NCBI GenBank assembly: GCA_964501515.1
Contig: CAZCSS010000002.1
Span: forward strand, 1 to 44,471
Direction of reading: 5' to 3'
Length of the DNA stretch: 44,471 nucleotides
Origin: an uncultured archaeon
GTDB lineage: Archaea > Aenigmatarchaeota > Aenigmatarchaeia > QMZP01
A model generated the notes under the pieces. The model made no database searches. It had not been told where the DNA came from and was given only the letters and a program-made list of their open reading frames with translations. The position numbers and the translations under genes were made by a program. Positions 1 to 15,400 of the stretch are shown one piece after another. How positions within the stretch are numbered: position 1 is the stretch's first letter; each line of letters starts with the position of its first letter.

Positions 1-1628
1 GGCTCGAACGAGTCTTTCACTGCGTTTTCCACAGAGGCTATTCTGGTGTTCATGTCCTCTATGAAATTGTTGTATTTTCTTATCCTTTCCTCAACCTCCT
101 CTGCCTTCAGGCTGCTCTGGTTTTTTATGTTCTGCACGGTCTGGTTAAGGGAGTCTATCTTTTTGCTGAGATTGTCGAAATGGGAGTTTATCTCATTGAG
201 CCTGTCTGATACAGCATCCGGGACCGCTCTGGCGGCTTCGTCTTTTTTAAAGTGCCTAAAACCTTCTTTCTCAAGGACCTTAATTATGTCATCATCTGAG
301 GGGATTTCCTTTTCAGCTGCATTAATATCCTCCTCCAGGGAGGCAATCCTGGACTTCATGTCGCCCAGCTGCTGTTCCACTATCTGCTTTAGTTTCTCCT
401 CTGAAATCCCTGCAGCCTGCTGCTGGACAGATTTCATGTCATCCCGGAGCCGGGCCAGTTCTTTCTCAAGGGAATGAACCCTGTCCAGTTCCCTCTTTTC
501 CAGCCCGGGCTTTCCTGTGGCCATGGATTCAAGCCCGGCAATCCTCTCAGACAATTCCCTGAGGCCTGAACTGGTTTCCTGAATCTGCGAAAGGAGTCCG
601 CTTTTTTCTGCATCAGCGCTCCTCAGGGATTCCTCAAGGGACTCTATTCTCGAGAAAAGGTTGTTTATGCTTCCCTTTATGGAGCCTGTCTTCCTGTTCA
701 TGGCCTCGAGTATGCTCATCCTGAGATCGTCAGGTGCCTTCTCAAAGGATGCGAGCCTGGCCTCGAGTCTTTCCAGTCTGGCCTCAAGGGAGTCCAGCTT
801 TGCAGGGTCTTCCTGCTTCTTCCTTATATCCTCGACAAGGAGATTCAGGTTCTTCAGTTTGTCTTCAAGGTCCTGCCTGAGCTCATTCACCATATCCTCG
901 GGCGAATGTTCCCTGATGTTCTGAATCATAAGGTCAAGCCTCTGCTTCTCGGCTTTCAGCCTGTCCCTTATCATGCCCTCTATGTCAGGCTCCTGCCTGA
1001 ACTCAATGTCGTCAATCCTCTTGGCAATCTTCTCTATTTCGGTGTGGAACCTTTCTTTGTCCACAAGCTCTCCTGCGAGGGAGTTCACGCTTTCCCTTAT
1101 CTGGTCTATCTCCTTCTTCAGGACATTTCTCACCACATCCTCTATTGTCTGGTTGCCAAAGTCAAGCCCGTCTATCCTGGCATTGGTCTTTTCAATCATC
1201 TCCCTGAGCCTGCGAATCTCCATGGTGTCCTTTCTGACAGAGCCTATGTTTGCATACACATCAGCCAGCTCTCCCTTGAGGATTTCCTCCACTATCCTCT
1301 CTATGCCTGCATGCTTTTCAAAATCAAGTTCGTCAAGCTTTTCGTCAATTCTCTGGAATTTTCTGTGCACATCCTTGCTGAACCTGGCAAGCTCCTTTGA
1401 CATGGATGAAACCTGCCTGTGATCAGGCAGGGACTCGAGCTTCTTCACCCTCTCGCTGACTCTGGCCTCTGCATTCCTAAGCGCAATCTCCAGGTTCTTT
1501 ATGTTCTCTGCGTTTTTCTCCACAAGGGCCATCACATCCCTGGCCAGGAAGTCGTACCCCATTCTCCATTTCTCTTCATCTGTCTTGAGCCTCAGTATGG
1601 CCTCCTCTATCTTCTGGTACGTGCTCAT
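1..1628 (-). CDS. Coiled-coil protein, 3' end cut by window edge (at least 542 codons visible)
   Basis: Absent from the ORF track because there is no stop inside the window. The ATG is the reverse complement of cat at 1626..1628, 2 nt after the TGA (1631..1633) of the upstream gene. My manual minus-strand translation reads MSTYQKIEEAILRLKTDEEKWRMGYDFLARDV...NTRIASVENAVKDSFE with no stop down to base 1. Composition is E/K/L/R/S/I-rich and heptad-like, as in its neighbours. The plus-strand S/L/F-rich ORFs (46..477, 661..924, 906..1400, 973..1422) are its antisense shadows. Confidence 0.75.
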   Translation of the reverse strand, partial: MSTYQKIEEAILRLKTDEEKWRMGYDFLARDVMALVEKNAENIKNLEIALRNAEARVSERVKKLESLPDHRQVSSMSKELARFSKDVHRKFQRIDEKLDELDFEKHAGIERIVEEILKGELADVYANIGSVRKDTMEIRRLREMIEKTNARIDGLDFGNQTIEDVVRNVLKKEIDQIRESVNSLAGELVDKERFHTEIEKIAKRIDDIEFRQEPDIEGMIRDRLKAEKQRLDLMIQNIREHSPEDMVNELRQDLEDKLKNLNLLVEDIRKKQEDPAKLDSLEARLERLEARLASFEKAPDDLRMSILEAMNRKTGSIKGSINNLFSRIESLEESLRSADAEKSGLLSQIQETSSGLRELSERIAGLESMATGKPGLEKRELDRVHSLEKELARLRDDMKSVQQQAAGISEEKLKQIVEQQLGDMKSRIASLEEDINAAEKEIPSDDDIIKVLEKEGFRHFKKDEAARAVPDAVSDRLNEINSHFDNLSKKIDSLNQTVQNIKNQSSLKAEEVEERIRKYNNFIEDMNTRIASVENAVKDSFE

Positions 1629-1630
1629 AT

Positions 1631-4600
1631 TCACTCCTTAAGGATCTTGTACAGCCTTTCCTGCTGTTTCTCATTCATCACGGCCATGTCCTTCATGAAC
1701 CTTGCAAACTCCTTCCTCATCCTGGCAAGCTCGGCGTTCATTATCTCGTCATTGAGTTTCATCCTGGCCTCGATCTGTTCCCTGAGCTGCTTCAATGAGC
1801 CAGCATCGCCTGTTTTCTGGGACTCAAGCTTGTCCAGGATTTCAGAAAGTATGGTGTCTGTCCTTTTTCTCAATTCAGAGAGTTTGGACTCAAACTGCCT
1901 TACAAGACCCTCAGAACGCCTCACCCTGGCCTTTATTTCCTCAGGGTCATAGCTCTTCTTTGAAAGGATTTCCGCCTGCTTTGCAATGCCTGAAACAGTA
2001 GCATACAGGTTGCTCTTCTCATTCTCCAGGCGGGCAATCCTGTTCCCCAGCTCCCTTATCTGGGAATTGAGGCTCTCCTCAAGCACAGCCTCCTTTGCCC
2101 CCAACTGTGTCCTGGAACTTTCTATCTTCTGCTCAAGGGTTTTCTGGTCCAGCATCCTGCCGCTTATCTCCTTCCTGAGGGAACTGATCGCAGAGTTCAT
2201 GCCGGATACCAGACCTTCGAATGATTCTATTCTCTTCTCAAGCTTCAGCCTCTCTGCCCTCATGCCTGCTATCTCGTCAAGCGCCTTTCTGGTGAAGCGG
2301 GAATCTGCTTCGCGGAATTTGGCTTCCAGCGCATCAGCCGCTGCCTTCACCCTGTTCTCCAGCCGGGGCTCTATCCTCTTTATCATTCCCTCGAGAACAC
2401 TGTCCTCGATGCCTGCCTTTCCTATCTTGCTGGAAAGCGAGTTTATCTCATTTTGGAGTTCTCTCTTTATGCTCCCTGTTATCTGCTTGTGGGACTTCAG
2501 GGCGCTCTCAAGGCTGGAGATTCTTGAGGAGAGGTTCTCTTGGGCAGTGATTATCTTGTTGCTGAAATCTGCATCAATGCTGTCCATCCTGTTAGCCAGG
2601 GAGCTTATGGTGCTTTCGAGTTCAGAGTCCTTTATTCCGGATATCTGGGCATCCTTTTTCAGTTCTGATATCCTTGACAGCGCGTTCTTGGTGGCGCTTT
2701 CGAGCGCGTTAATTCTTGATGATATATCCTGCTGCGCACTGGTCACTTTGCTGAGTTCATTCTCCATCCTTATCTGAACATCTGCATCATGCTCCTTCAG
2801 CTGCTTCTCAAACAGGTTTTGCTCGGATGTAACAAGGGAATCCAGTCTGTCGGAAAGGGATTTTATAGAGTTCCTGTCCTTTGAGAGGCCCAGTCTCATG
2901 CCCTGAATGGTATTTTTCATTTCTTCAAGGGACTTTGCAAACTCCTTGTTCAGGCTTTTATAATCCAAAAGCTTCTGCCTGATGTCCTGCTGGGAGAGCG
3001 CTATTCTGGAATCAAGCTTCTTCTCATCCAGCCTGGATTTCTGCACCTCGTTTTTTATCTCTTCTATCTTGTCTGAAAGCATTCTTTCAGTGATTTCAGC
3101 AGTTTCTATTCTCTTCAGCAGGCTGCTGGTTTGCTGGCCGACGGCATCGGAAAATTCCTTTTGCTTTCTCTCAAACTCTCTTCTTAGGGACTCGATGATG
3201 TTTTTCAGGTTTTTCTCGTTGAGGCTCCCTGCACTGGCTTTTCTGCCCAGTTCGGAAAGCCTGGAGTTCACAGAAACCATGGCCTTCTCAAAACTGTCAA
3301 GTCTTTTCTCCATGTCCGTCTGCAGCCTGCCTACATTGAATGCAATCTCAGAGTCTTTCCTGCTGGCAAAGTCCCTGAGAGAGTCTAGCTTGTCCTGAAT
3401 CTCCTTTCCTGTAAGCGTGCTTTCCCTTATTTGATTCTTGAAATTTTCAACATCCCTCTGGATGCCCTGAAAGAATGAGCGGGATTTCTGTATCTCATCT
3501 GCCATATCTTTCCTCAGAGCTTCCAGTTTGCTGTTAAAGAGTTTGTCGTCAAGCCGGTCAGACTGCATGGTTTTTTCAAGTTCGGACATTCTTTTCAGCA
3601 GGCCCTGCATGCCCGCATCCTGCTTTGCAACCCTGTCTTCAAGGGATTCAATTTCCTGCGCAAGCGCCCGGCTGCTGCCGGCAAGTTTGTTCTCAAAATC
3701 CTTCCCGAGCGAGTCTATCATTCCCTCGATATGTTTTTCAGTGAATCTCTCCTCCTGGAGGGCTTTCTCAAGACCCCCAAGTTTTTCAGACAGTTCCTTC
3801 AGGGCCTTCTGACCCTTCAGGAGTTCCATTTCCATCCCGCTCCTTGTCTGCTCTATCAGCATACGGTTCTCCTTCACAGACTTGTCTGTATCGTCCTTCA
3901 GTCTGGAGAGTCTTTCATCAAGGCGCCTGTCGGTTACTGAAAGCCTGTTATGCAGCGAGGTCTCGGCTGCCTTGATTCTGGTCTCAGATGATCTCAATGT
4001 GTCATTTATCTTCTTGTCCAGGCCGTCCCTGACAGACTTGAGCTGCATGTCAAGAAAACCCTTCATCTCAGAGAGTTCGGACTCTATTCTTTTCTCATCA
4101 ATGCCTGCTTTTTCCATCTCTCTGGCAAGGCCGGAAAAATCAGACTGCATCCTGTCTGCTGTCTTCTCAAGGGCATCCAGCCTGGAGGCAAGCTTCTGCT
4201 GGGATGCTTTGAGGGAGCTGCTCATGTCGAGCATCTTCTTGTCAGCCATTCTCGAGAAATCATTCAGCTTGCTGTCAAAAACATTCCCCTCGGCCTTTAT
4301 CAGCCCGTCCACCACATTCCTTACATCATCAATCCTCTGCCTGTTCTTGTCCTCTCTCTGCTTTGCAAAGGAGAGCTGCCTGCTGAATTCAGCAAGGTCG
4401 GAGCGGATTTTTGCTGCCATGTCAGCCAGGGTTTTCTCGAACCTCTTCATGTCCTCTTCGGCCTTGCCAATCCTTTCCTCCAGCTTGGAATCCCTTTTCC
4501 AGGATTCGTCCCTGATAGAGTCCACTGACTTTCTGATAGAGTCCTCTGCGGTCTTTATCATGGTCTCTGACGACAGTTTGAACTCATTCAGTTTTTCAGA

Positions 4601-5881
4601 GAGACGCTCCCCGTCTGCGCCTGCCTTCACTATCTTCTTGTCGAGGTTCTTGAGGCCGGAGGCAAACTCCTTTTTCACGTTCTCTAGCATCAGCCCGATT
4701 TTTGAGGCAAAATTCTCAGTATTGGCTATCCTGGTTTCAAGCTCCTTCCTGCTTTTCGAGAGCGCCTTCTCAGCATCTGAGCCTGCGCGGGCAGACTCCC
4801 TGAATGCATTTTCTATCTTTTTCTCAAGAATGTCCCTGGTGAGCTTCATGCTGTCTTCAAGGTGCTCCTTGATTTCCGAGAACCTGGACTCTATCCTCTT
4901 CTCATCAAGGCTGGCCTCTGCGAGTTTTTTGCTGAAATCCTTCATGGCAAACTCTGCCTGCTTTATGGCGTTCTCAGAGGCCGTCAGTCTCTTGTCAAGC
5001 CTGTTCAGGGATTCGCTCATCCTGGAGCAGGATTCCCTGTTCAGCTTCTCAGCATCCCTTGCGACTCTCTCTATGCCTTTCTCAAAAAACTCCTTATTCA
5101 GTTTGAGCTTGTCCTCAAGAAATGACCTGAACTCGGCAATGCTGCTCTCTGTGCGCTTCTCATCAACCCGGGTTTCTGCAAGAATCTTCCTGAACTCGGC
5201 AACAGCCTTTTCAAGTCTTTGGGAGAGGTTCTTTGAGTAGATTTCTGCGGATTCCAGCCTTGCCCTGAGGACTGTTTCTGACCTTTCCATGGATTTCTTC
5301 AGTTCCGTCAGGTCCTTCTCCAAGGCTGCTTTGTCCTCTTTCAGCCTCCTCTCTGCAGCGCTCCTGAACTCACTGAACTGCCTGCCGGCGGCGTCTTCAG
5401 CCCTTGCGAGTGCGGCCAGTTTTTTGTCCAGCTCTGCAACCCTTGCGCCCATTTCAGAAGCAATGCTTTTTGAGAGGGTTTCGTTGGCCGCTATCCTCTT
5501 GTTGACCTGCTCCAGCGTTGATTCGAGCCTCTGGAAGGAGACAGCATCTGACCTTTCCAGCCTCTTCACAATCTCTGAAATCCTTTCTTCAAGGCTGCTC
5601 TTCCACTCCCTGTTCGCTCTGGAAAATTTCTTCAGCTCTTCTGCAAGCTCCTGTATTCTTCCCTTCAGTGGGCCGGTTTCCTTTTCAGTGAAGTCCAGTA
5701 TCCTCTTTCCGGCTTCCTCGTACACGGCGTATGCCTCGTTCAGCTTCTGGGCCAGGTATTTTGACCTCTCCAGAAGAAGGTCCCTCTCCTTCTGCAGGCT
5801 CCTGATGGCCCTTTTGTGGTTTTCGCTCTCCCTTTTCAGCCTCATTATGCCGCTTCTCAGAGAGGACATCTCGCTGCTCAT
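1631..5881 (-). CDS. Giant coiled-coil protein, 1,416 aa, no TM segment, built from degenerate helical repeat units
   Basis: Uninterrupted 4.25-kb ORF. Its ATG overlaps the upstream stop in an ATGA (5878..5881). The sequence is almost entirely E/K/R/L/S/I/D. About 15 units open with a signature like h-D-E-K-x-h-E-S (VDEKRTESS, LDEKRIESR, IDEKRIESE, FTEKHIEGM, LNEKNLKNI, LDEKKLDSR, IEDSVLEGM, LDQKTLEQK). No hydrophobic stretch and no nucleotide-binding motif seen. Confidence 0.88.
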   Translation of the reverse strand: MSSEMSSLRSGIMRLKRESENHKRAIRSLQKERDLLLERSKYLAQKLNEAYAVYEEAGKRILDFTEKETGPLKGRIQELAEELKKFSRANREWKSSLEERISEIVKRLERSDAVSFQRLESTLEQVNKRIAANETLSKSIASEMGARVAELDKKLAALARAEDAAGRQFSEFRSAAERRLKEDKAALEKDLTELKKSMERSETVLRARLESAEIYSKNLSQRLEKAVAEFRKILAETRVDEKRTESSIAEFRSFLEDKLKLNKEFFEKGIERVARDAEKLNRESCSRMSESLNRLDKRLTASENAIKQAEFAMKDFSKKLAEASLDEKRIESRFSEIKEHLEDSMKLTRDILEKKIENAFRESARAGSDAEKALSKSRKELETRIANTENFASKIGLMLENVKKEFASGLKNLDKKIVKAGADGERLSEKLNEFKLSSETMIKTAEDSIRKSVDSIRDESWKRDSKLEERIGKAEEDMKRFEKTLADMAAKIRSDLAEFSRQLSFAKQREDKNRQRIDDVRNVVDGLIKAEGNVFDSKLNDFSRMADKKMLDMSSSLKASQQKLASRLDALEKTADRMQSDFSGLAREMEKAGIDEKRIESELSEMKGFLDMQLKSVRDGLDKKINDTLRSSETRIKAAETSLHNRLSVTDRRLDERLSRLKDDTDKSVKENRMLIEQTRSGMEMELLKGQKALKELSEKLGGLEKALQEERFTEKHIEGMIDSLGKDFENKLAGSSRALAQEIESLEDRVAKQDAGMQGLLKRMSELEKTMQSDRLDDKLFNSKLEALRKDMADEIQKSRSFFQGIQRDVENFKNQIRESTLTGKEIQDKLDSLRDFASRKDSEIAFNVGRLQTDMEKRLDSFEKAMVSVNSRLSELGRKASAGSLNEKNLKNIIESLRREFERKQKEFSDAVGQQTSSLLKRIETAEITERMLSDKIEEIKNEVQKSRLDEKKLDSRIALSQQDIRQKLLDYKSLNKEFAKSLEEMKNTIQGMRLGLSKDRNSIKSLSDRLDSLVTSEQNLFEKQLKEHDADVQIRMENELSKVTSAQQDISSRINALESATKNALSRISELKKDAQISGIKDSELESTISSLANRMDSIDADFSNKIITAQENLSSRISSLESALKSHKQITGSIKRELQNEINSLSSKIGKAGIEDSVLEGMIKRIEPRLENRVKAAADALEAKFREADSRFTRKALDEIAGMRAERLKLEKRIESFEGLVSGMNSAISSLRKEISGRMLDQKTLEQKIESSRTQLGAKEAVLEESLNSQIRELGNRIARLENEKSNLYATVSGIAKQAEILSKKSYDPEEIKARVRRSEGLVRQFESKLSELRKRTDTILSEILDKLESQKTGDAGSLKQLREQIEARMKLNDEIMNAELARMRKEFARFMKDMAVMNEKQQERLYKILKE

Positions 5882-8800
5882 TCCCTCAGCTCCTTAAGGA
5901 GTTCTGATATCCTTGACTTCTCCTTATTCAGCCTTTCCGTGAGCTCCTTTTTCTCCCTCTCATATTCCCTAGTGGCTGCCCTGTATTTCAGCCTGTCTGC
6001 CCTGATCTGCTCCTCAAGGGCCGACTGCTTTTCCTGCACGGCCTGCATCAGCTTCTCCAGACCGCTGACCTTCCCGGACAGCAGCTGGTTTTGCACAGTC
6101 TTTTCATGGAGCTCTTTCTCTCCTGCCTCGAGGTCTGAAACCCTTGTTTTGAGGGTCTCCATCTCTGATACGGATTTCTGCAGAAGGGACAGGTCCCTGT
6201 TAAGCCTGCTCATCTCTGACCTCTGGCTTGAGATGAAGGACTTGAGTTCCTCTTCTGTCTCGATTATTCTCCTTGAATCCTGCTCAAACCCTCTCAACTG
6301 GGATTTCAGTATATCAGACACCCTGGACTCCATGTCCTTCTTCAGGGCGTCGCTCTTTGCAGCCAGCGCCTGCAGCATCTTTCTCTCTATGTCTGTGAGT
6401 TTTTCTGTCTCGCCTGACAGCTGCTCCTTGAGGTTCTCCATCTCTGAGGCCAGTATGTCAGCCCTGGCGGCCAGGGCGTTCCTGTCCTCGATCAGGCCTG
6501 AAATCACCTTCTCCTGGGAATCCAGTTTTGCCGGAATGTTCTTCAGGGAACGGAAACTGTCAACAAGTCTGGAAAGGCCTGCCTCGCTCTTATCCTGCCT
6601 TCCCGCTAATTCCTTCAGAGAATTCTCTGCAGAAGCCGCGCTGCTCCTGAGGGAGGAAATCTCTGTGCGTGTTCCCTCAAGGGCCTTCTTCAGGGTTTTG
6701 ACATCAGCAGAGAGCCTTGCATCAATGCTGTTCAGTTTGTCACTGAACAGGTTTTTGAGGCTCTCCTGTGCGGACTTCATGACCTTCTCGTCCCCAAGGG
6801 ATTGCACTATCATTTCCCTCAAGCTGCCGCTCCTCTCCGACAGGTTCTTCAGAGCGTCTTCTGTTTTTTTCTCAACCCCCTCTATTCTGGCGGATATTGT
6901 CCTTATGGTCTGGATGAACTCATCATCTGAAACGTATTTTTCGCTGATTTTTGAGAAGTCTGTTTCCCTTCTTTCAATGGAATCAAGCCTCTTTCTTATT
7001 GAAGGAAGCTCGGATATTATCGAGCGCACGGAGTCAATTTCCTTCAGAACCTCCCTCAATTCAGCCTCCTTGGTCTTCAGGCTTTCTTCTATGACCGATA
7101 TCCTTCCTATCTGGCCCTTCAGGTCTTTCATGCTGCTTTTGGAGACCTCTGCCAGCCTTGCATTGAACATCTTTCTCATGTCAGCCAGTTCGGCCGAGAA
7201 GTTCCTGGCAAGCGACTGTTCCGCACTGGATATCCTGTCAGACTCGCTGGTAAGCCTGTTATTAAGGTCTTTTATCTCCTTTCCAAGGTCTTCTGTTCTC
7301 TTGTCTAAGGTGTCGCCTGACTCCATGAGTTTTATCAAAAGGTTTGAGTGCGACTCCGTCTTTTTGGAAAGTGGCTCTGTAATGGATTTAAGAGCCTTTA
7401 TCTCAGCGCCAGTGTCTGACTTCAGTTCCAGGAGTTTGGACTGCATGGCAGAGGTGCTGTTCCGGACAGAGAGCATGGCGGCGTCAATCTCCTTTCTTAT
7501 ATCATGAGTTATGCTCTTTGCAAGGCTGCTGATTGCTGAATCACCCTTCTCTGCTCTCTTCTCCAGCTCGGATATAAGGGATTCCGCCTTCCCTATTCTG
7601 GTATTATAATCCTTCAGTGCGGTTTGCAAAGAGGACTCTGCAGAAGACAGCCTCTCGGCTTCAGCGTAAACCTTTTCCTCAAGAACACCCATCCTTCCTG
7701 CAAGCTCGTCAGCCCTTTTGAAAAAGAGGTCCTTGGAATCAATCAGTTTGGAGAGGGCTGCAGTGTGCTCATCGATCCTTTTCGAGAACCTGTTAAGAGT
7801 CCTCTCGGCCAGTTTTAGGCCCTCCCTGAGGCTGTTCAGCCCGTCGGCCTGCCTTGCTATGTCCTTTTTTGCATTCTCTATGTCAGGAGTAATCTTCTTC
7901 TCTATTTCCTGCAGTCTGGTTTCTGCCCACCGCTTTATGCTCTCCGGGGCCTCCATCTCCTCTATCATTTTCCTGAGTCTGGTATCATGCTCCTCAAGGT
8001 CATTGGATTTCTGCTCAAAGAATGCCTGGTTTCTCTCAAGCTCCTGAAACCTTTTCTCGAAGAGGACAGTCACGATATCCTTCACATTGGACTCTATTGT
8101 GGCATAGTCAGACGCCTCTTTGAGGGACTGCATATCCCTGTTCATCTTTTCTGCCAGCTTGTCCATCTTCTTCTTTATGTTGTCCTTCAGAATCTGCAGC
8201 CCGTCCAGAAACTTGGCCTCCTCCTCGGCAAATCTCTTGTACAACCTGTCTTTCTCAAGCCTGAACTCATTAAGCGTGTCTCTCATCCTTGAGAGGTCTC
8301 TGATTTCTGACCTCAGGATGTTCACCTTTGAACTCAGTTCCTTCACAGCCCCACGGGTGTTCTTGAGGCTGGTCACCAGGGGGTCCAGCCTGTACCTGAA
8401 CTTCTTGTTGATAATGTCAGGGATGACCTCGTCAGTGAGTTCATCTGCATTGAACACAAGCCTTTTCAGGCGCTGAACATTCTCAGAGCCCAGCTTTTCA
8501 ACAAGCTCCTGATAGTTCTTCTCAAGCACAGGAAGTTTGTCCAGTTCTCTGACTCTGTCCTCAAGGTTCCCCAGACTGTAGTCCCATTTCTTTGAGAGTG
8601 TGTCTATGTTCTTTTTCAGAAAATCTATCTGCTTCTTCAGCTCAAGAAGTTCTTCGTGGAAATTGATTTCCTGGCCAAAGGAGGCCAGCCCGGTTGAGAC
8701 AGATGAGCCCTCCATGCTTGGGTGGGGAAGAGACATCTGTGCCATGGCACCCAGAACAGAGGGCTCTTCATGGCCTGCAGGAACGGGCTTCGGGGAACCC

Positions 8801-9681
8801 GCGGCGGGAAGCGATGAGGGTCTCATGGTTTCGGCAAGCGCAGCTATCCTGTCCAGGCCCTTGAGCTTTTCGGATATCTCATCAAATCTCGAGTCCACCA
8901 CCTTCTTTATCATGCTTGATATCTTCTTTGCATCGGCCCTGGGCTCTGATGCATCCTTCCCCTCCTTTGCCTCGGGGGATTCTGTTTTTTTCTCTTCGCC
9001 TGCCATACCTTCAACCTCCTTTTTGCCCCCTGCTCCGGCAGGGGCTGTCTTTTTTTCCAGCTTTTCTTCAAGTTTTTCTTCAAGCTCATCAAACTTCTGC
9101 TCAAATCTCGATACAAGCTTTTCATCAGCATCCCCGGATTCCCTGGAACCGGAAGGGGCGGGGGATTCCTCCTGCCTGGAGATTTGCTCTATTATTTTTG
9201 CAAGAGACTTTTTTTCATTCTCAAGACTTTCTATCAGGGACTTCTGCTCTTCGAGTTTTTTTCTCAGGTCTTCACTTTTTGCTGCAGATACCGGCCCGGG
9301 CTTTGAACCGGAAATGCGGGGCTTCTCATCCCCTTTCTTTTTTCCGGGCTTTGCGGACCCTTCTTGGGGGTGTCTTGTATCAGGTTTGGGCTTTTTGGTT
9401 GGTTCCTCTTTTTTCTCTTTCTCTTCGGAATCCGCGCCGGGTTTCTCTCCGGCATTTTCCTGCTTCTCAAGCTCTGTCACTTTTTTGTCAAAATCCTGGA
9501 ATCCCAGACCCATTTCTTGATTTTTTTGTTCCTCGTAATCAAGCTCCTTGGAAATCTCCTCTCCCCTTTCCATCAGGTCTGCTTTCTGGCCCTCAAGCAG
9601 GGAAGCCCTGGCTCTTAGGTTCTCCGCCTCCTTTTCGATGTCTTCTGCATCAGTCCTTTTCTTCCTGCCCATCTTAACCAC
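5878..9681 (-). CDS. Giant coiled-coil protein, 1,267 aa, with a roughly 330-aa E/K/P/G/S-rich low-complexity N-terminal region
   Basis: Uninterrupted 3.8-kb ORF. The track start at 9681 is GTG. An in-frame ATG at 9672 (MGRKKRTDAEDIEKE...) lies 1 nt after the TAA of the upstream small gene and is an equally good start. The N-terminal third is charged and Pro-rich (EKPGADSEEKEKKEEPTKKPKPDTRHPQEGSAKPGKKKGDEKP). The remainder is heptad-like helix with no TM and no Walker motifs. Confidence 0.87.
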   Translation of the reverse strand: MVKMGRKKRTDAEDIEKEAENLRARASLLEGQKADLMERGEEISKELDYEEQKNQEMGLGFQDFDKKVTELEKQENAGEKPGADSEEKEKKEEPTKKPKPDTRHPQEGSAKPGKKKGDEKPRISGSKPGPVSAAKSEDLRKKLEEQKSLIESLENEKKSLAKIIEQISRQEESPAPSGSRESGDADEKLVSRFEQKFDELEEKLEEKLEKKTAPAGAGGKKEVEGMAGEEKKTESPEAKEGKDASEPRADAKKISSMIKKVVDSRFDEISEKLKGLDRIAALAETMRPSSLPAAGSPKPVPAGHEEPSVLGAMAQMSLPHPSMEGSSVSTGLASFGQEINFHEELLELKKQIDFLKKNIDTLSKKWDYSLGNLEDRVRELDKLPVLEKNYQELVEKLGSENVQRLKRLVFNADELTDEVIPDIINKKFRYRLDPLVTSLKNTRGAVKELSSKVNILRSEIRDLSRMRDTLNEFRLEKDRLYKRFAEEEAKFLDGLQILKDNIKKKMDKLAEKMNRDMQSLKEASDYATIESNVKDIVTVLFEKRFQELERNQAFFEQKSNDLEEHDTRLRKMIEEMEAPESIKRWAETRLQEIEKKITPDIENAKKDIARQADGLNSLREGLKLAERTLNRFSKRIDEHTAALSKLIDSKDLFFKRADELAGRMGVLEEKVYAEAERLSSAESSLQTALKDYNTRIGKAESLISELEKRAEKGDSAISSLAKSITHDIRKEIDAAMLSVRNSTSAMQSKLLELKSDTGAEIKALKSITEPLSKKTESHSNLLIKLMESGDTLDKRTEDLGKEIKDLNNRLTSESDRISSAEQSLARNFSAELADMRKMFNARLAEVSKSSMKDLKGQIGRISVIEESLKTKEAELREVLKEIDSVRSIISELPSIRKRLDSIERRETDFSKISEKYVSDDEFIQTIRTISARIEGVEKKTEDALKNLSERSGSLREMIVQSLGDEKVMKSAQESLKNLFSDKLNSIDARLSADVKTLKKALEGTRTEISSLRSSAASAENSLKELAGRQDKSEAGLSRLVDSFRSLKNIPAKLDSQEKVISGLIEDRNALAARADILASEMENLKEQLSGETEKLTDIERKMLQALAAKSDALKKDMESRVSDILKSQLRGFEQDSRRIIETEEELKSFISSQRSEMSRLNRDLSLLQKSVSEMETLKTRVSDLEAGEKELHEKTVQNQLLSGKVSGLEKLMQAVQEKQSALEEQIRADRLKYRAATREYEREKKELTERLNKEKSRISELLKELRE

Positions 9682-9949
9682 TCAACTCGTTTATAAGCTT
9701 TGACATCACCTTTTCCTGCTTCTCAAGCCTCCTCTCAAAATCAGAAACAAGACCCTCCAGACTATCGATCCTGACCTTAAGTTCTATGTCAGACATACCC
9801 GTGTACAAATTTTGAAATCCCTTGGGGTCAGGCAGCAGGCCTGCATGCCCCTGAGAGAGCCCAGAAGAGGGGGACCTAAGCCGCCAGAACTCGTAAAACA
9901 TGAACGCAGCTGCTGCAACCACAACGCCCAAAAGCAGTACATCTAACAT
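9674..9949 (-). CDS. Small membrane-anchored coiled-coil protein (91 aa: N-terminal TM helix plus C-terminal heptad segment)
   Basis: The track ORF 9674..10081 starts in the A/T-rich intergenic region. I prefer the internal ATG at 9947..9949, giving MLDVLLLGVVVAAAAFMFYEFWRLRSP...IELKVRIDSLEGLVSDFERRLEKQEKVMSKLINELSG. That is one hydrophobic helix followed by basic residues (tail predicted cytoplasmic), then coiled coil. A TATA-like TTTAATTAATAAA lies about 22-34 nt upstream on the minus strand. The stop lies against the start of the next gene. Confidence 0.6.
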   Translation of the reverse strand: MLDVLLLGVVVAAAAFMFYEFWRLRSPSSGLSQGHAGLLPDPKGFQNLYTGMSDIELKVRIDSLEGLVSDFERRLEKQEKVMSKLINELSG

Positions 9950-10133
9950 GGTTAAATAATAAATTAGGGGTTTATTAATTAAACTTATATATATGTAATA
10001 GTGAAGACATATTAATTTTTTGTCAAAAATTCTTTTTGAAAAAGTAACATTGTAAGCACGGTTTAAGGCAAAACCCCTCAAAAGGAAAGGGTTTTATATT
10101 ATATTTATATAATATTTAACAGAAGGGGTATGA
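9950..10133. promoter_or_regulatory. Divergent A/T-rich promoter region with TATA-like boxes for both flanking genes
   Basis: This 184-nt stretch is the most A/T-rich in the window. The minus-strand box TTTAATTAATAAA ends about 22 nt before the ATG at 9949. On the plus strand, tttatataat (10104..10113) lies 21-30 nt before the ATG at 10134, with GAAGGGG at 10122..10128 as a possible short SD. Spacing fits archaeal TATA to TSS distances and short or absent leaders. Confidence 0.4.
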
Positions 10134-10781
10134 ATGAAAAAGCTGACTGACTACAAAAACTTCTGGCTCATATGGCTGAGCGCCGCAGGAGACCAGAGAG
10201 GCATGTCGCTTTTTAGCATTCAGAATCTCTGGGGCATAAAAACTAACTATCTTTACCATGATGAGGCCGGATTGGGAAAACCGTTGTACCTGTCTATGAT
10301 AAGACAGGGATATGTGGAAAAACAGGGGAAGCGCCTCAGGGCAAGATTCGAATGGGTTGTGCCGTTTATGAAAGAACGCTATGGAGCGCTTACACCGCCG
10401 GGGATGTGGACGCCAAACGGCATTATACTCTCAAAATGGCCTGTTGTGCAGGAGTTCATACAGAACAACCCCGAGAAGCTGTTCGGGGCAAGGGCACTGA
10501 AGATTCTGTACAGGAACAGCAGGGACGCGCTCGGGATTTCCGGGAGATACATATTTGCTGACATATTCCTTTATGTCATGTTTTCCAATCTCATAGTGTT
10601 TTGCAGGAAATACAATGCCAGCATAGTCCTGAGAATAATACTCACTGCCACCTCGATGTTCACCGACAGGAACCTTCTCGGGTATATGCAGCACCTGAAC
10701 GCAGAGATGAAGGGGAGGTATCCTGTGATAATAGCCAATGAGGTTGAACTCAACAGAATGATGGCTCCATTCAACTGGTAA
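10134..10781 (+). CDS. Hypothetical protein, 215 aa, no family recognised
   Basis: Clean ATG ORF with non-repetitive globular composition, sitting downstream of the TATA-like box. The N-terminal part (SIQNLWGIKTNYLYH...LSMIRQGYVEKQGKRLRARFEW) could be a winged-helix-like fold, but that is only a guess. Overlapping ORFs on both strands (10352..10561, 10431..10799, 10571..10774) are shorter and less plausible. Confidence 0.6.
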   Translation: MKKLTDYKNFWLIWLSAAGDQRGMSLFSIQNLWGIKTNYLYHDEAGLGKPLYLSMIRQGYVEKQGKRLRARFEWVVPFMKERYGALTPPGMWTPNGIILSKWPVVQEFIQNNPEKLFGARALKILYRNSRDALGISGRYIFADIFLYVMFSNLIVFCRKYNASIVLRIILTATSMFTDRNLLGYMQHLNAEMKGRYPVIIANEVELNRMMAPFNW

Positions 10782-10861: not shown

Positions 10862-11668
10862 GTGTGCGTGACTAGAATACTCGGGGTTGTTTCTGGAAAG
10901 GGTGGTGTGGGAAAGACCACGCTTGTGGCCAATCTGGGAGCAATTCTTGCCAACCACTTCAGGAAAAGGGTCATTGCAGTTGACTGCAACATATCAACAT
11001 CCCATCTCGGGCTTTATCTTGGAATGTATTACTATCCTGTTTCGCTGAACCAGGTGCTCAGTGGGGAGGCGCAGATAGAGGAAGCAGTATATAATTACAG
11101 CGTTCCGGGGATGCAGATTATTCCGGCCTCGCTGTCAATGGACGAGCTGAGGGGGGTTGATGTTTCCATGCTGAAGAATGTCATAAAGAAGCTTTTTGGG
11201 AAAGCAGACATAGTTCTTCTTGACGCTGCTCCGGGCCTTGGAAGGGAAGCCATGGCGGCCATAAGAGCGAGCGACGAGCTTGTGTTCGTAACAGTTCCGT
11301 TTGTTCCGCCCATAGTGGACATAATAAAGTGCGGGCAGGCGGCAAAAGAAATGGATGCGAGGCCGCTCGGGGTGGTCCTGAATATGACCGGGGAAGGCAG
11401 GCATGAACTCACTCCTGAAGAAGTGGAGCAACTTGTGGAGCTTCCTGTAATAGCCAGCATACCAAGGGACAGGGCTGTCTTGAGAAGTTTGTCTGCAAGA
11501 GTGCCTGTAATGGATATCAGTCCGAGGTCACCTGCCACAAGGGAGATAATGAAGCTGGCCGCATTCATTATAGGCGAAGACTACAGAGAGCCCGGGATGA
11601 TGAGCAGGATAAAAGGGATTTTCAGGCGAAAAAGCCGGACCGAGAAGGTCCTGGAAGTCAGGATATAG
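10862..11668 (+). CDS. minD: MinD/ParA-family (SIMIBI) P-loop ATPase, archaeal MinD-like, 268 aa
   Basis: Deviant Walker A at the extreme N-terminus (VVSGKGGVGKTTLVANLG). Walker B-like hydrophobic strand plus Asp (ADIVLLDAAPG). Length and layout are typical of MinD/ParA. The C-terminal basic amphipathic tail (MMSRIKGIFRRKSRTEKVL) resembles a MinD membrane-targeting sequence. Start is GTG at 10862, with an alternative GTG at 10868. Confidence 0.9.
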   Translation: MCVTRILGVVSGKGGVGKTTLVANLGAILANHFRKRVIAVDCNISTSHLGLYLGMYYYPVSLNQVLSGEAQIEEAVYNYSVPGMQIIPASLSMDELRGVDVSMLKNVIKKLFGKADIVLLDAAPGLGREAMAAIRASDELVFVTVPFVPPIVDIIKCGQAAKEMDARPLGVVLNMTGEGRHELTPEEVEQLVELPVIASIPRDRAVLRSLSARVPVMDISPRSPATREIMKLAAFIIGEDYREPGMMSRIKGIFRRKSRTEKVLEVRI

Positions 11669-12148
11669 TCATCCGAATTTTCTCAGCACATATTTATTGC
11701 CTGTTTTCTCAAGAACGCAGTTATAATAGGGTTTTTCCCTGGACCTTACCATCCTTTCTATTATCAGGAAATCGCTGGGTATTATTTGCTCTTTCATGCC
11801 TTCCAAGGCTTTCATACCAAGCCATCTCAAATCGCTTTCATGGCAGCTGCTGGTTTGTTTGGCCGGAAGAGCAAGCTCGCAAATATGCAGCAGAAAATGT
11901 CTGGATATTCTGTTGTTCTCTATGAGATGCTCGGAAACTGTGCCGAGCATACCCTTGAACTCAGCCCTGATTCCAGTCTCCTCCAGAACCTCCCTGACTG
12001 CGGCTTCCGAAATGTGCTCATTCTTCTCAATCTTTCCCCCCGGCAGGGCCCACAGCCCGGCGTAGTCCCCCCCTGCTCTTTTTATCAGAAGTGTCTTTCC
12101 GTTGCTTCTCAGCACAGAAACCGCCACCGGAACAGGAGTGTTATCCAT
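11669..12148 (-). CDS. NUDIX hydrolase, about 159 aa
   Basis: Perfect Nudix box G-x5-E-x7-R-E-U-x-E-E-x-G-U: GKIEKNEHISEAAVREVLEETGI. The track start at 12184 is a TTG. I prefer the ATG at 12146..12148 (MDNTPVPVAVSVLRSNGKTLLIKR...), which has a TATA-like box about 22-30 nt upstream. The stop codon abuts the MinD stop (convergent genes). Confidence 0.85.
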   Translation of the reverse strand: MDNTPVPVAVSVLRSNGKTLLIKRAGGDYAGLWALPGGKIEKNEHISEAAVREVLEETGIRAEFKGMLGTVSEHLIENNRISRHFLLHICELALPAKQTSSCHESDLRWLGMKALEGMKEQIIPSDFLIIERMVRSREKPYYNCVLEKTGNKYVLRKFG

Positions 12149-12167
12149 GATTGTTTTGTGGGGGTTT

Positions 12168-12179
12168 GATATAAATATC
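12168..12179 (-). promoter_or_regulatory. TATA-like box for the NUDIX gene
   Basis: The minus strand reads GATATTTATATC followed by 19 nt and then the ATG at 12148. This spacing fits a leaderless archaeal transcript. Confidence 0.4.
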
Positions 12180-12260
12180 AGCAAAGGAATAATATTATAT
12201 TAGTTCTGATGCGCTGCGGCTTCCGCGGCCTGTCCCCTTTCAGATGTGGCCTCTGTGTGG

Positions 12261-12417: not shown

Positions 12418-15400
12418 CTAACTGAGCTTTCTGTTTATCTCAGCCAGCCTGGTTTCGGTTCTTTTCTTCAGGCTGTTATATGCCTCCTGTGATATTATGC
12501 CCTGCTTGCGCTGCTGCTCCAGAAGGTTGAGCATTCTCTCAAGGCGGTTCTTCTCCACCTTCAGTTTCTCGCTGTCATCCTCCCTCTTCACAGAGGAGGT
12601 AAGCTTGCCTATTTCCGTTGTCCTTCCCCTTATAAGCGTCTTCAAGCTCGTGCTTATTCTTCTTATGTAAATCACAAGCATTGCAACAACTATGCCGAAC
12701 GCTATTATCAGTGCGAGCCACCATGGAAACACAAAGAGATTCGGCGCTGTTGAGAGAAGATATTCTGCCTTGTCAAGCAGGTTCCATCCGGCATATATGG
12801 CATCAAGCGCATCCTCGTACCTTTCATCAGAGAGGTATCTCTCGGCCTTTGATATCTGCTTCTCTATCTCATCAACAAGCAGGAGGACATCTGTAAGGTC
12901 TTTGATGTTTCTGGCATTGTCCACCTTTATCATAAACTCGTCCAGGGCATCCTTGAGCCTTTCAAGCTCATAATGCACCAGCTCCTTCATGGACGTGAAT
13001 ATCAGCAGGTCAAATGTTTTCTCGTCCCTTGAATCACCGGAAACAGCTGCTATTATCACCTTCCTTTTCCCTGCCTTTGTTCCTCCTGGAACAAGTATTC
13101 TGAACGTGAAGACTGTTGTTTCATTTGGGTTCAGCAATGCCACTGACTTGGGGCTGATGTCATACCACTCCGGCGGGATTCCAGACACTTCAAGCGTGAC
13201 ATTGGTCAGGTTTGTCCCTCCGGGATTTCTGACATGTATGTTGGGGAACCTGGCAAGACCAACCATAACCGCTACCTCGGTGGGGTATTTGGAGATTTCT
13301 ATTTTGGGCGTGGGCGGCGCCCCCCCACCTCCGGCAGGTGCAGCCGGGCCAGTCGGTCCGGGTCCGGGAGGTCCGGGCGGGGCCCCGCCTGGAAGGACCT
13401 TGAATGTCACACTTGTTTCTGACCCTGCATCGGTGAGGGTGTCATTTATGGTTGCATGGAGCGTGTATATTCCAGGCGGCTGGTCAGAGAAGATAAACAC
13501 CCTCGTCCCTGGAACAGTTATGTTCTGGCCTGCGGGGGTATAGGTGGGCTGGGCATCAGGAAGGGAATACCAGGTCTGGCCAGCACCCTCTACCCAGTAT
13601 CTGAGGTCAACGTCTCTCCCGTATTCTCCCTTGTTGTCAATAATAAGATTGAAGTTAAACCACTGACCTTGCTGAACCTCGGCCGTGATGAGTTCTATCC
13701 TGAGGTCATAAGGCCCCCAGGCAGCTATGCTGAACGCCCTGCTGGCCACGGTATGCAGGCCGCCTTTTGTAGCCTTGAGAACAGCCCAGTAGTCTCCTGA
13801 CTGGATTGTGGTTCCCATCACATAGCTGACCAGATAGCGTCCTGTGGAGTTCTTGTTCATTGCAGGGTTTCCGTTCGTGAGATTGGTCTCAAAAAGTACA
13901 TTGCCCAGTATGGGGTTTCCGTAGTAAACAGTCATGTTCATTGTGTCAGGATCAATGGGCAGACCGGCAGCGTCCTTTACCAGAAGGTCAAACGTCATTG
14001 TGCTGTTCGGGAACCAGACGTCCCTGGTCACAATCTCGGCGTCCATGCCAATGCTGTCATACACATCAAAATAGTTTGTTGTGGTATCAGTCACATTCCA
14101 GGGAACAATATTATCATAAAAAAGCGAGTGCGTGGTTATGGCGTATCTGCCTTCAGGATAATCTGATTTTATGGTGAAAAGGTCGGGGTACGGCGAACTT
14201 GCAGGTGTTCCATTCTGGTTGGTTGTATAGGTATTGTTTACCAGAACATACCCCGCCGGGTCTGTTATGGTTACTGTTGCGTTCACGTTGCTGAGATTCT
14301 CATTGTTCATGTCCATTACATGGTATCTGAGCGTGACCGAATCGCCTGTTTTGTATACAGGCTTCCCTGTGGTAGACGTCACTGCGAGATCAGCATATAT
14401 CCGTAAGGTCTCATTTTTTGTGGTGTTGACACTGCTGTTGTCCTGGATGAAGATGCTGACTGTGTAGTTGCCTCTTAGGATGGTATTGCCCCATACATCT
14501 CCGAGGTAGTCAGGGTATGCCGTCGTCCAGTAGGATGTCCCTGAAACCTGGCCGCCGTTGTATTGAAGTGTGTGATTGCTCACATTTCCATCAGGCCGAT
14601 AGACATATGCCATAATGGTGCAGTTCACGGGCGGCGGACCCTCATCATCACATCTGATGGGATTCCCGGAGAGGCTGGTTACTGTGACATCTATATCCAC
14701 ATTGCTTATCTGCTGTGTGATGTTCGGGCTGAGAACTATGATAATATTGGCCTCTATTTGGGGGTTGAGGGCCACGAAAAGGAACCTCTCTCCAGGAACA
14801 GAGTAGTTATAAGTGGCATTGATGCTGTAGTTCGAGTATTGCCACTGCTTGGGTTCGCCCTGACCCGTTATGTCAAAATACACTGCAAATATGTGATAAT
14901 CTTGCTTTGCAACACTGAAATTGGTGTCTGTTATGTAGGTGTAGTTTTCATACAGCGGGGTTATGTTAAAATTGAGCAGCATATTGCCCGTGTTGTTCAC
15001 GCTCACATTGCACACTATTCCTGTATCCTCATTCTGGAAGCGCTCGCAATATTCAGGAATCATCACCCAGCTCCCGTTCTCCGGGACTGTTATGCTTAGG
15101 TTTATTATGTGATAACCATTGTTGCCAGTGGTTACATTGATGCTGCCGTTGTAGACCCCCGGATCATGGCCTGCAGAAGCGGTTAGATTGGCCGACACAA
15201 TTATAACATCACCCGGGCTCATGTTGAAGGGAAAGTCAGGGGTGAAGTTGAAGGTAAAACCAGCCATGCCCGTTATGGTGTAACTCACGTTGATTATCTT
15301 GGAGTTGCCGGTGGAGTTCAGGGTTATGTTTCCGAGAAATGTTGTGGTGTTATGCTCCATGGTGTCTGTGAACTGATTCTCCGGAACCAGAAGTATCACG

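Follow-up and report, generated by a model that had tools for sequence, protein, structure and literature searches.

A putative membrane-tethered coiled-coil operon with an archaeal MinD ATPase as its constant partner in Aenigmatarchaeota

Positioning systems that pair a MinD/ParA-type ATPase with a landmark protein are known from bacteria. DivIVA-MinJ-MinD of Bacillus subtilis combines a membrane-binding MinD, which carries a C-terminal amphipathic helix, with a coiled-coil landmark and a transmembrane (TM) adaptor. In the PomX-PomY-PomZ system of Myxococcus xanthus, the gene for the ParA/MinD-family ATPase PomZ, which uses the nucleoid as its surface, lies beside coiled-coil scaffold genes, and one large positioned assembly is found per cell. 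Polar hubs of the HubP/TipN type are large, repetitive, membrane-anchored landmarks that recruit MinD/ParA-like ATPases (FlhG, ParC) and envelope machines to a single site; HubP combines its TM, acidic repeats and a LysM domain in one protein. From archaea, MinD4 of Haloferax volcanii is known to position archaella and chemosensory arrays, for which it needs its membrane-targeting sequence (MTS), and to have no effect on division (bioRxiv 10.1101/2020.04.03.021790). Here we describe four co-oriented genes in a 44,471-nt stretch of archaeal DNA (contig CAZCSS010000002.1; "the window", with coordinates counted from its first letter). They occupy positions 1..9949 of the minus strand, encode a 91-aa membrane anchor and three large coiled-coil proteins, designated CC1, CC2 and CC3, and lie next to genes for an archaeal MinD and a phylum-specific 215-aa protein. 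We propose, from sequence and gene order, that this operon would specify a membrane-tethered cytoplasmic coiled-coil scaffold, positioned by or partnered with MinD and underlying a host-contact apparatus, and we give the proposal about an even chance of being correct. The array resembles the MinD/ParA-linked coiled-coil landmarks in kind and bears no relation to any of them in composition. The features of this part of the window are as follows.

1..1628, minus strand: CC3, at least 542 aa, open at the window edge; 4-5 copies of an ~85-aa repeat
1631..5881, minus strand: CC2, 1,416 aa, isoelectric point (pI) 9.1; N-terminal module (residues 1-75) and ~16 tandem ~85-aa repeats (residues 59-1416)
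5878..9672, minus strand: CC1, 1,264 aa; N-terminal helix, low-complexity linker, conserved core and long C-terminal coiled-coil extension
8272..8694, minus strand: family-defining core of CC1 (residues ~330-470), from a conservation profile over 40 orthologues; motifs 'GLASFG', 'LP.LE' and 'GSEN..L..L.FNADE...E.IP'
9674..9949, minus strand: anchor, 91 aa, as translated; N-terminal TM helix (residues ~3-21) and C-terminal helix predicted to be cytoplasmic
9950..10133, no strand assigned: divergent promoter region, 184 nt, AT-rich, separating the anchor and 215-aa genes; each strand has TATA-like boxes
10134..10781, plus strand: phylum-specific protein, 215 aa, with a winged-helix-like N-terminal part and a helical C-terminal domain; constant neighbour of MinD and the operon
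10862..11668, plus strand: archaeal MinD ATPase (TIGR01969 minD_arch, 222.1 bits versus a cutoff of 201.75)

The initial annotation of this DNA had described four coupled, co-oriented genes, and we recovered all of them in place with the same junctions. The anchor and CC1 genes are joined by TAA-G-ATG at 9676..9670 (an alternative GTG at 9681 would give an 8-nt overlap), CC1 and CC2 by ATGA at 5881..5878, and CC2 and CC3 by TGA-AT-ATG at 1633..1626. The anchor length of 91 aa also held, its ATG at 9949 matching the start of ~25 orthologues. In contrast, the 1,267 aa first given for CC1 had to be shortened to 1,264 aa, since orthologues begin MA/GRKKR (MARKKR in the relative P0099) and fix the start at the ATG at 9672 (MGRKKR). 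The anchor gene is preceded, at ~37 nt, by a TATA-like box of archaeal type. Within the divergent promoter region, an 11-nt tandem repeat, TTTATATAATA, is present in 2.4 copies at 10093..10118, and these copies are probably TATA-box-like elements for the 215-aa gene. Scans of the window for Rfam families, tRNAs, DNA tandem repeats and bacterial promoters and terminators gave nothing relevant. Long open reading frames (ORFs) also occur on the plus strand inside the coiled-coil genes (3882..5240 and 5816..7507, of 452 and 563 aa, with others in 1..9700); because they overlap conserved minus-strand genes, we read them as antisense shadows of a biased coding strand and not as genes.

CC1, CC2 and CC3 are helical proteins with a strong heptad pattern. 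When 28-residue windows were scored for hydrophobic a/d positions with polar residues elsewhere, the pattern covered 84%, 93% and 96% of CC1, CC2 and CC3, respectively, as compared with ~30% of shuffled sequences, and BLOSUM autocorrelation at shift 7 gave z values of 10.8, 7.7 and 5.0 in the same order. Charged residues make up 36-39% of the 3 proteins, and cysteines number 0, 1 and 0. The earlier picture of pure, continuous coiled coil therefore stands with respect to helix and heptads and fails with respect to continuity: CC1 contains a linker and a core, CC2 is built from ~85-aa repeats with breaks between them, and the proteins are partly disordered. Their assignment to the cytoplasm was borne out. 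We found no signal peptides in the anchor, in CC1-3 or in a 580-aa protein of the adjoining surface cluster (listed below), and sequons for N-glycosylation (N-x-S/T) occur in these proteins at 0-0.7 per 100 aa, at or below expectation, as opposed to 5.9 and 6.7 per 100 aa in the neighbouring surface proteins, which is 3.5x the expectation from composition. By these measures the anchor helix and CC1-3 look cytoplasmic. The same data bear on the idea that the coiled-coil proteins are surface-layer stalks exported together with the giant surface proteins encoded nearby. Adjacency to surface-protein genes and one weak SlaB-type match in CC3 could be cited in favor of such fibres; however, in addition to the missing signal peptides and the low sequon counts, cysteines are almost absent and the anchor helix is predicted to lie on the cytoplasmic side, so that this idea is scarcely credible and secretion of CC1-3 appears very unlikely from the sequon and topology data.

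None of CC1-3 reached any Pfam or NCBIfam family, the matches to EzrA, apolipoprotein, Baculo_PEP_C and DUF1664 models being well under their cutoffs. Searches of the PDB, by sequence or profile, with CC1, CC2, the 215-aa family and the N-terminal module of CC2 stayed at noise level, and exact-product look-ups returned no match for CC1 or CC2 and only 2-kb contigs for the 215-aa protein. The likeness to SMC, Rad50 and MukB, to archaea-specific SMC-related proteins and to LmuB and JetC is confined to very long coiled-coil arms; CC1-3 lack the Walker A/B heads, hinge and zinc hook, and the matches fall in arms only. SMC, Rad50 and ASRP models scored 20-65 bits against cutoffs of 300-1,087, all at coiled-coil arm positions. 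A Walker A expression was absent from CC1-3 of the window and gave a single match, taken as chance, over the 75,642 aa of these proteins in 40 loci; no SMC_hinge match was found, and with 0-1 cysteines there is no CxxC zinc hook in CC1-3. We also searched for ATPase heads in the complete CC3 orthologues, which are 179-1,131 aa long and contain no other domain, and found none, only sub-threshold generic coiled-coil matches. Thus, the initial report of no Walker motifs and no SMC/Rad50 heads extends from the window to complete orthologues of its truncated gene, and heads, which that report had taken as the finding that would overturn its interpretation, are absent from the relatives' complete CC3, the CC3 of the window itself being open-ended. 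Public annotations name such proteins 'hypothetical', 'chromosome segregation ATPase' (Joint Genome Institute, JGI) or 'SbcCD ATPase subunit', and the last 2 names are coiled-coil artefacts. Membership in the defence systems Lamassu (LmuB), Wadjet (JetC) and Zorya (ZorA) was rejected, as the PADLOC matches lie in coiled-coil stretches only (LmuB 533-849 of 1,007) and the partner genes are not present.

The intermediate-filament and crescentin likeness that had been suggested reduces to analogy. Crescentin, FilP/Scy and EzrA resemble CC1-3 as long heptad helical proteins that lie under the membrane and have no nucleotide-binding domains, but the window proteins have no head-rod-tail layout, their anchor is a separate polypeptide, and model scores are far under cutoffs. 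The Rod_CreS model matched a single orthologue, with 19.8 bits versus a cutoff of 100. No match to the Filament family was found in CC1-3, nor a segmented rod of ~300-350 aa; instead, ~85-aa repeats extend over 1,350 aa. EzrA, which has an N-terminal TM and spectrin-like helical repeats of ~106 aa, as against ~85 aa here, matched CC1 only (19.4 bits versus 39.6), and the TM of the window system sits on the separate 91-aa protein. DivIVA gave no match at E<=0.01 in any of the 4 proteins. As judged from these comparisons, the operon belongs to no known family, including SMC/Rad50, crescentin, EzrA and DivIVA.

The repeat is clearest in CC2, where the autocorrelation peaks at shift 86 (z=8.7) and has harmonics at 172 and 348. 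A hidden Markov model (HMM) of the repeat found 15 to 16 in-register copies in CC2, depending on the E-value cut-off, with scores up to 75 bits; it found no copies in residue shuffles, and block shuffles of CC3 by 7-mers gave only 6 weak matches (12.8 bits at most). Copies of the ~85-aa unit are present also in CC3 and in the 580-aa neighbour. The tandem-repeat scan detected no repeats at the DNA level in these genes, and the ~85-aa repeats are therefore old. Breaks in the modelled CC2 helix at residues 237-240, 323-326 and 593-595 coincide with 'G-I/L-D-E-K' joints between units. Preceding the repeats is the N-terminal module, strongly conserved as ..L.sGI..LK....K......L.kE...L.eR...L..KL.EA...YEEAGKRILDF, and the N-terminal module of CC3 may be paralogous to it (hhalign probability 84%).

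The periodicity of CC2 is also relevant to a different reading of the protein, as a membrane-coating amphipathic helix of the apolipoprotein/perilipin kind: CC2, which is basic, would rest flat against the inner leaflet by means of 11-residue repeats and would shape or stabilise the membrane, at a cytoplasmic bridge for instance, and no rods would be formed. A hendecad-compatible pattern does cover 43% of CC2 versus 4% in shuffles, CC2 is basic (see above) while CC1 and CC3 are acidic, and sub-threshold Apolipoprotein and ApoLp-III matches recur in CC2 and in orthologues. However, the shift-7 signal is above the shift-11 signal (z 7.7 versus 4.7), the share of hydrophobic residues is what a coiled-coil a/d stripe calls for, the Apolipoprotein matches reach 20-45 bits where the cutoff is 90, and the presence of dedicated TM anchors suggests rods without membrane binding of their own. 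We see a slender chance for the coat. Membership in the apolipoprotein family itself (PF01442) was rejected at 20.3 bits in CC2 and 45.4 bits in one CC3 orthologue, and the proline content of CC2 is 0.2%.

CC1 differs in layout from the other 2 proteins. Residues ~75-330 (~250 aa) form a Pro/Gly/Lys/Glu-rich, non-helical low-complexity linker that precedes the core, and residues ~800-1264 (5878..7280, minus strand) form a C-terminal coiled-coil extension that is missing from most orthologues; because of this extension, the window CC1 is ~2x as long as the median orthologue of 660 aa. A profile of the core, searched against 1.84 billion cluster representatives, reached only 52 proteins at E<=1e-3, among them a sea-cucumber protein at E=7e-14 that we rejected as a coiled-coil false positive. 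The CC1 family, as defined by this profile, is rare and restricted to the lineage of the window. A second copy of a core motif, 'GLGFQDF', was seen near the CC1 N-terminus (residues ~56-62) and also in P0099, the closest relative.

As had been proposed for the first gene of the operon, the anchor consists of a single N-terminal TM helix followed by a helical segment, predicted to be cytoplasmic, which ends in the conserved sequence '...QE.V..KLI.EL.G'. The ~25 orthologues share the same start and the same TM. In each, an acidic residue precedes the TM and 2-5 basic residues follow it, and for this reason the positive-inside rule predicts an N-out/C-in topology in all orthologues compared. In many relatives the operon closes with a TM protein of 50-63 aa that has an anchor-like topology by the same rule and a very basic tail. 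Membrane attachments are thus predicted for the first gene product of the array and, in relatives, for the last one too. The array departs from HubP in that its anchor is a separate 91-aa protein and its repeats are ~85-aa helical units.

The 215-aa protein and MinD, which the initial annotation overlooked, are the most informative partners of the operon. MinD contains the deviant Walker A sequence with the signature lysine ('SGKGGVGKTT', residues 11-20), and bacterial MinD and ParA models scored under their cutoffs on it (ParA_partition, 50 bits versus 180). A membrane-targeting sequence of the MinD type is predicted in its C-terminal amphipathic helix, GMMSRIKGIFRRK, from the F/L/K/R pattern, which is kept among the orthologues listed (45 of 49); GMMSRIKGIFRRK also resembles the tail of B. 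subtilis MinD. The 215-aa protein was modelled well by AlphaFold2 (predicted local distance difference test, pLDDT, 89; predicted template modelling score, pTM, 0.86), and it had no Pfam or NCBIfam match, no fold-search match at E<0.5 and no significant PDB match. It has 95 homologues at 43-84% identity, all without domain annotation. Only nine of these carry a source name, and those that name an organism are Aenigmatarchaeota/Aenigmarchaeota except one ('uncultured archaeon'). A MinD regulator and a DNA-binding adaptor are the candidate roles for this protein.

The second of these roles leads to a chromosome segregation or organisation system, in which the 215-aa protein would be the adaptor to DNA, MinD/ParA the motor, and the coiled coils SMC-like tethers between DNA and membrane. 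The N-terminal part of the 215-aa model weakly resembles winged-helix regulators, the ATPase is in the ParA/MinD superfamily, and the JGI label points in this direction. On the other hand, the ATPase passes the MinD model and not that of ParA and carries a predicted membrane-targeting helix; a TM protein stands at the start of the operon and in relatives also at its end; and the coiled-coil proteins, as described above, lack head, hinge, zinc hook and all but one cysteine and match SMC, Rad50 and ASRP in arms only. We regard a chromosomal role as improbable. PomXYZ differs from the window system, whose ATPase is a MinD with a membrane helix and whose scaffold would have TM anchors of its own, and no homology links the two.

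We found related loci through the 215-aa family, as direct homologue searches with CC2 and the CC1 core were swamped by generic coiled coils and yielded no more than 2-3 true relatives. When species-representative genomes were scanned for this family, 57 loci emerged, and ORFs were mapped in all of them. Where a lineage is named it is nearly always Aenigmatarchaeota, the remainder being metagenome-assembled genomes (MAGs) of 'uncultured archaeon'; neighbouring genes place the window in this phylum of DPANN archaea too, in keeping with the archaeal source that had been deduced. CC1 was found in 39 loci, and every one with enough flank also carries the 215-aa gene and MinD. Two layouts were observed. 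In the first (~25 genomes) a single strand carries, in order, the 215-aa gene, MinD, the anchor (87-93 aa), CC1 (~640 aa), CC2 (680-1,400 aa), CC3 (400-1,130 aa) and the small TM protein, with gaps of ~30 nt or overlaps, and MinD is directly upstream of the anchor gene in most relatives. In the second, that of the window subclade, the block from anchor to CC3 is inverted and diverges from the 215-aa gene and MinD. Coupling is conserved: CC1-CC2 junctions fall within -4..+4 nt in 30/33 cases, 19 of them being 4-nt overlaps, and CC2-CC3 junctions within -8..+1 nt in 20/25. Orthologue lengths vary widely (CC1, 566-1,267 aa; CC2, 434-1,913 aa; CC3, 179-1,131 aa), which fits gain and loss of repeats. 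In relatives, housekeeping genes (GlmS, TIM) follow CC3, which marks the boundary of the cluster there. An origin as a mobile element was ruled out by the presence of the cluster in complete chromosomes (CP070801; 215-MinD also in CP070804) with housekeeping flanks. In the full-text literature we found no description of the operon or of a 215-MinD-coiled-coil array.

On the other side of MinD from the operon is a cluster of surface-protein genes, as follows.

12418..18297, minus strand: 1,959-aa glycoprotein-like surface protein with signal peptide, C-terminal TM and short cytoplasmic tail; linked by conserved synteny
18337..20079, minus strand: 580-aa charged cytoplasmic coiled-coil protein with two copies of the ~85-aa repeat; linked by conserved synteny
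20089..44409, minus strand: giant surface protein, at least 8,106 aa, open at the right end of the window; TM at ~7707-7735, followed by a HerA/DUF87 P-loop ATPase domain above Pfam cutoffs

The ectodomain of the giant protein contains 519 N-glycosylation sequons, and its cytoplasmic part contains the Walker A sequence GSTGSGKS and then a C-terminal coiled coil; in 16 Aenigmatarchaeota loci, identity over the last ~400-780 aa is 53-71%. In SPEARE proteins of Nanohaloarchaeota, a C-terminal TM likewise joins a giant ectodomain to a cytoplasmic part, which is the best-conserved region, and their authors pointed out similar sequences in Aenigmarchaeota (PMC6642349). The window giant shares this layout; by description, the only basis on which the two were compared, the SPEARE cytoplasmic part is restriction-enzyme-like (PMC6642349), whereas that of the window giant scores as HerA/DUF87. 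The likeness to SPEARE proteins and attachment organelles concerns the neighbours of the operon and not the coiled-coil proteins.

Homologues of the 1,959-aa protein occur in 32 loci, and orthologues of the 580-aa protein lie between the giant gene and a ~2,000-aa gene in at least 16 loci. The 580-aa protein may act in the cytoplasm as an adaptor that joins the surface proteins to the scaffold. It contains 'I-S/T-x-x-E-Y-x-x-x-K' motifs near both ends that are similar to the tail of the 1,959-aa protein, a tail in which we also observed sub-threshold matches to SHOCT (16 bits) and FIMAH (23.7 bits). Homologues of the surface genes are found within 10 kb in 28/39 CC1 loci. In 16 of these 28 the genes are co-directional and run from the giant gene through a 480-740-aa charged protein and the ~2,000-aa surface protein into 215-MinD-anchor-CC1-3. 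The tie between operon and surface cluster, which had been suggested from the window alone, was therefore found in relatives too; the link is frequent and not universal.

This adjacency must be weighed against a cytoskeleton for the division site or for cell shape, in which MinD and the coiled coils would act on the division machinery or on envelope stiffness in the manner of DivIVA/MinJ/MinD, EzrA or PomXYZ and would have nothing to do with the surface proteins. MinD is the constant partner of the operon, weak EzrA and crescentin-rod matches exist, and 8 CC1 loci lack the surface cluster within 10 kb, all of which such a cytoskeleton would accommodate. However, those 2 matches are far under cutoffs, the surface cluster is adjacent in most CC1 loci, and no FtsZ, SepF or Cdv division genes were found in the 57 mapped neighbourhoods. 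In Haloferax, the only archaeon tested, none of four MinD genes had an effect on division or Z-ring placement (bioRxiv 10.1101/2020.04.03.021790). Compared with DivIVA-MinJ-MinD, the anchor and CC1-3 bear no sequence relation to DivIVA or MinJ, the three coiled-coil proteins are 5-10x larger and stand in one array with MinD, there is no MinC, and a division role is unlikely in archaea (bioRxiv 10.1101/2020.04.03.021790). We thus consider a division or shape function unlikely.

Our preferred reading remains the tethered scaffold, and we infer that the anchor and CC1-3 may assemble together, that MinD may position them, and that the surface apparatus may be what they serve. The 91-aa anchor would insert N-out/C-in and offer its conserved cytoplasmic helix; CC1, CC2 and CC3, made in coupled amounts, would assemble on this helix into long rods or a sub-membrane lattice; and the array of the relatives would be closed by another small TM protein, N-out like the anchor and basic in its tail. 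The scaffold would form one module with the 215-aa protein and with MinD, itself predicted to bind the membrane through its C-terminal amphipathic helix, and MinD-ATP, partnered by the 215-aa protein, would place or confine the scaffold at a single site on the membrane, where the scaffold would hold the SPEARE-like giant with its cytoplasmic HerA-type ATPase, the 1,959-aa protein and the 580-aa adaptor as a host-contact apparatus. Fully extended, CC2 would be ~210 nm long (at 0.1485 nm per residue), a length comparable to the diameter of a DPANN cell, and such rods would consequently lie along the membrane or span the cell. Placement by MinD is proposed by analogy with archaeal MinD4 and with the bacterial MinD/ParA-landmark pairs. 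MinD4 is, like the window protein, an archaeal MinD with an MTS, predicted in the window protein and essential in MinD4 (bioRxiv 10.1101/2020.04.03.021790); MinD4 differs in that no dedicated coiled-coil partner operon is known for it, and the cargo in the window system would be a host-contact apparatus in a DPANN symbiont. Large attachment organelles and cytoplasmic filaments have been seen by cryo-electron tomography in other DPANN, with no proteins assigned to them (PMC11420986). These images make the scaffold proposal testable and give it no direct support.

Several observations weigh against this proposal. The window operon is divergent from MinD and is not co-transcribed with it. The 8 CC1 loci without a surface cluster belong to the subclade nearest to the window, and in a few genomes (L004, L005, L015, L037, L046) 215-MinD has no operon nearby. 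The AlphaFold2 model of CC2 residues 1-700, helical throughout, is of low confidence (pLDDT 62, pTM 0.20), too low for a fold search, although such values are as expected of an isolated rod. Assembly of the scaffold is read from sequence and synteny, and in small, compact genomes a neighbourhood can persist without functional coupling. Finally, the winged-helix-like part of the 215-aa protein could indicate DNA and not membrane.

DPANN archaea live attached to other cells, and a bolder version of the proposal, which we hold tentatively and think rather doubtful, takes the whole array of ~ten genes (SPEARE-like giant, 580-aa adaptor, ~2,000-aa surface protein, 215-aa protein, MinD, anchor, CC1-3 and small TM protein) as the first genetic parts list of a DPANN host-contact organelle. 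A MinD-positioned, tethered lamina of ~60-280 nm rods would space the giant adhesin/translocase at the contact site, and rod length, as long as the width of the cell, would depend on how many ~85-aa repeats had been gained or lost. As to the partners of archaeal MinD proteins, the cluster offers a MinD with a dedicated scaffold operon. Together with the lineage-specific partner and the adjoining SPEARE-like giants, these genes constitute a conserved, phylum-wide candidate set, through which the building and placing of the contact apparatus becomes a question for protein-protein and localisation experiments. To the few cytoskeletal systems of coiled-coil type known from archaea, the scaffold would also add a family that is built from repeats and homologous to none of them.

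Some further observations concern the surroundings of MinD. In the window only, and not in related loci, a NUDIX hydrolase gene (11669..12184, minus strand) lies between MinD and the surface cluster. In relatives that lack the coiled-coil operon after MinD, the next gene encodes a KaiC-like DUF7504 protein (L004:2318-2878, L007:10158-10781, L015:2681-3208), and in L007 a four-PAS-domain protein follows the latter. In outgroup MAGs labelled Nanohaloarchaea/Nanobdellati, 215-MinD is followed by one coiled-coil protein of 220-513 aa with an NPFGMLG motif (L051:8917-10458, L052:11673-12335, L056:2693-3424, L059:11729-12448). This motif recalls the GLASFG of CC1, and in L056 and L059 a giant gene lies a few kilobases downstream. 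The outgroup arrangement hints at a simpler, ancestral form of the module.

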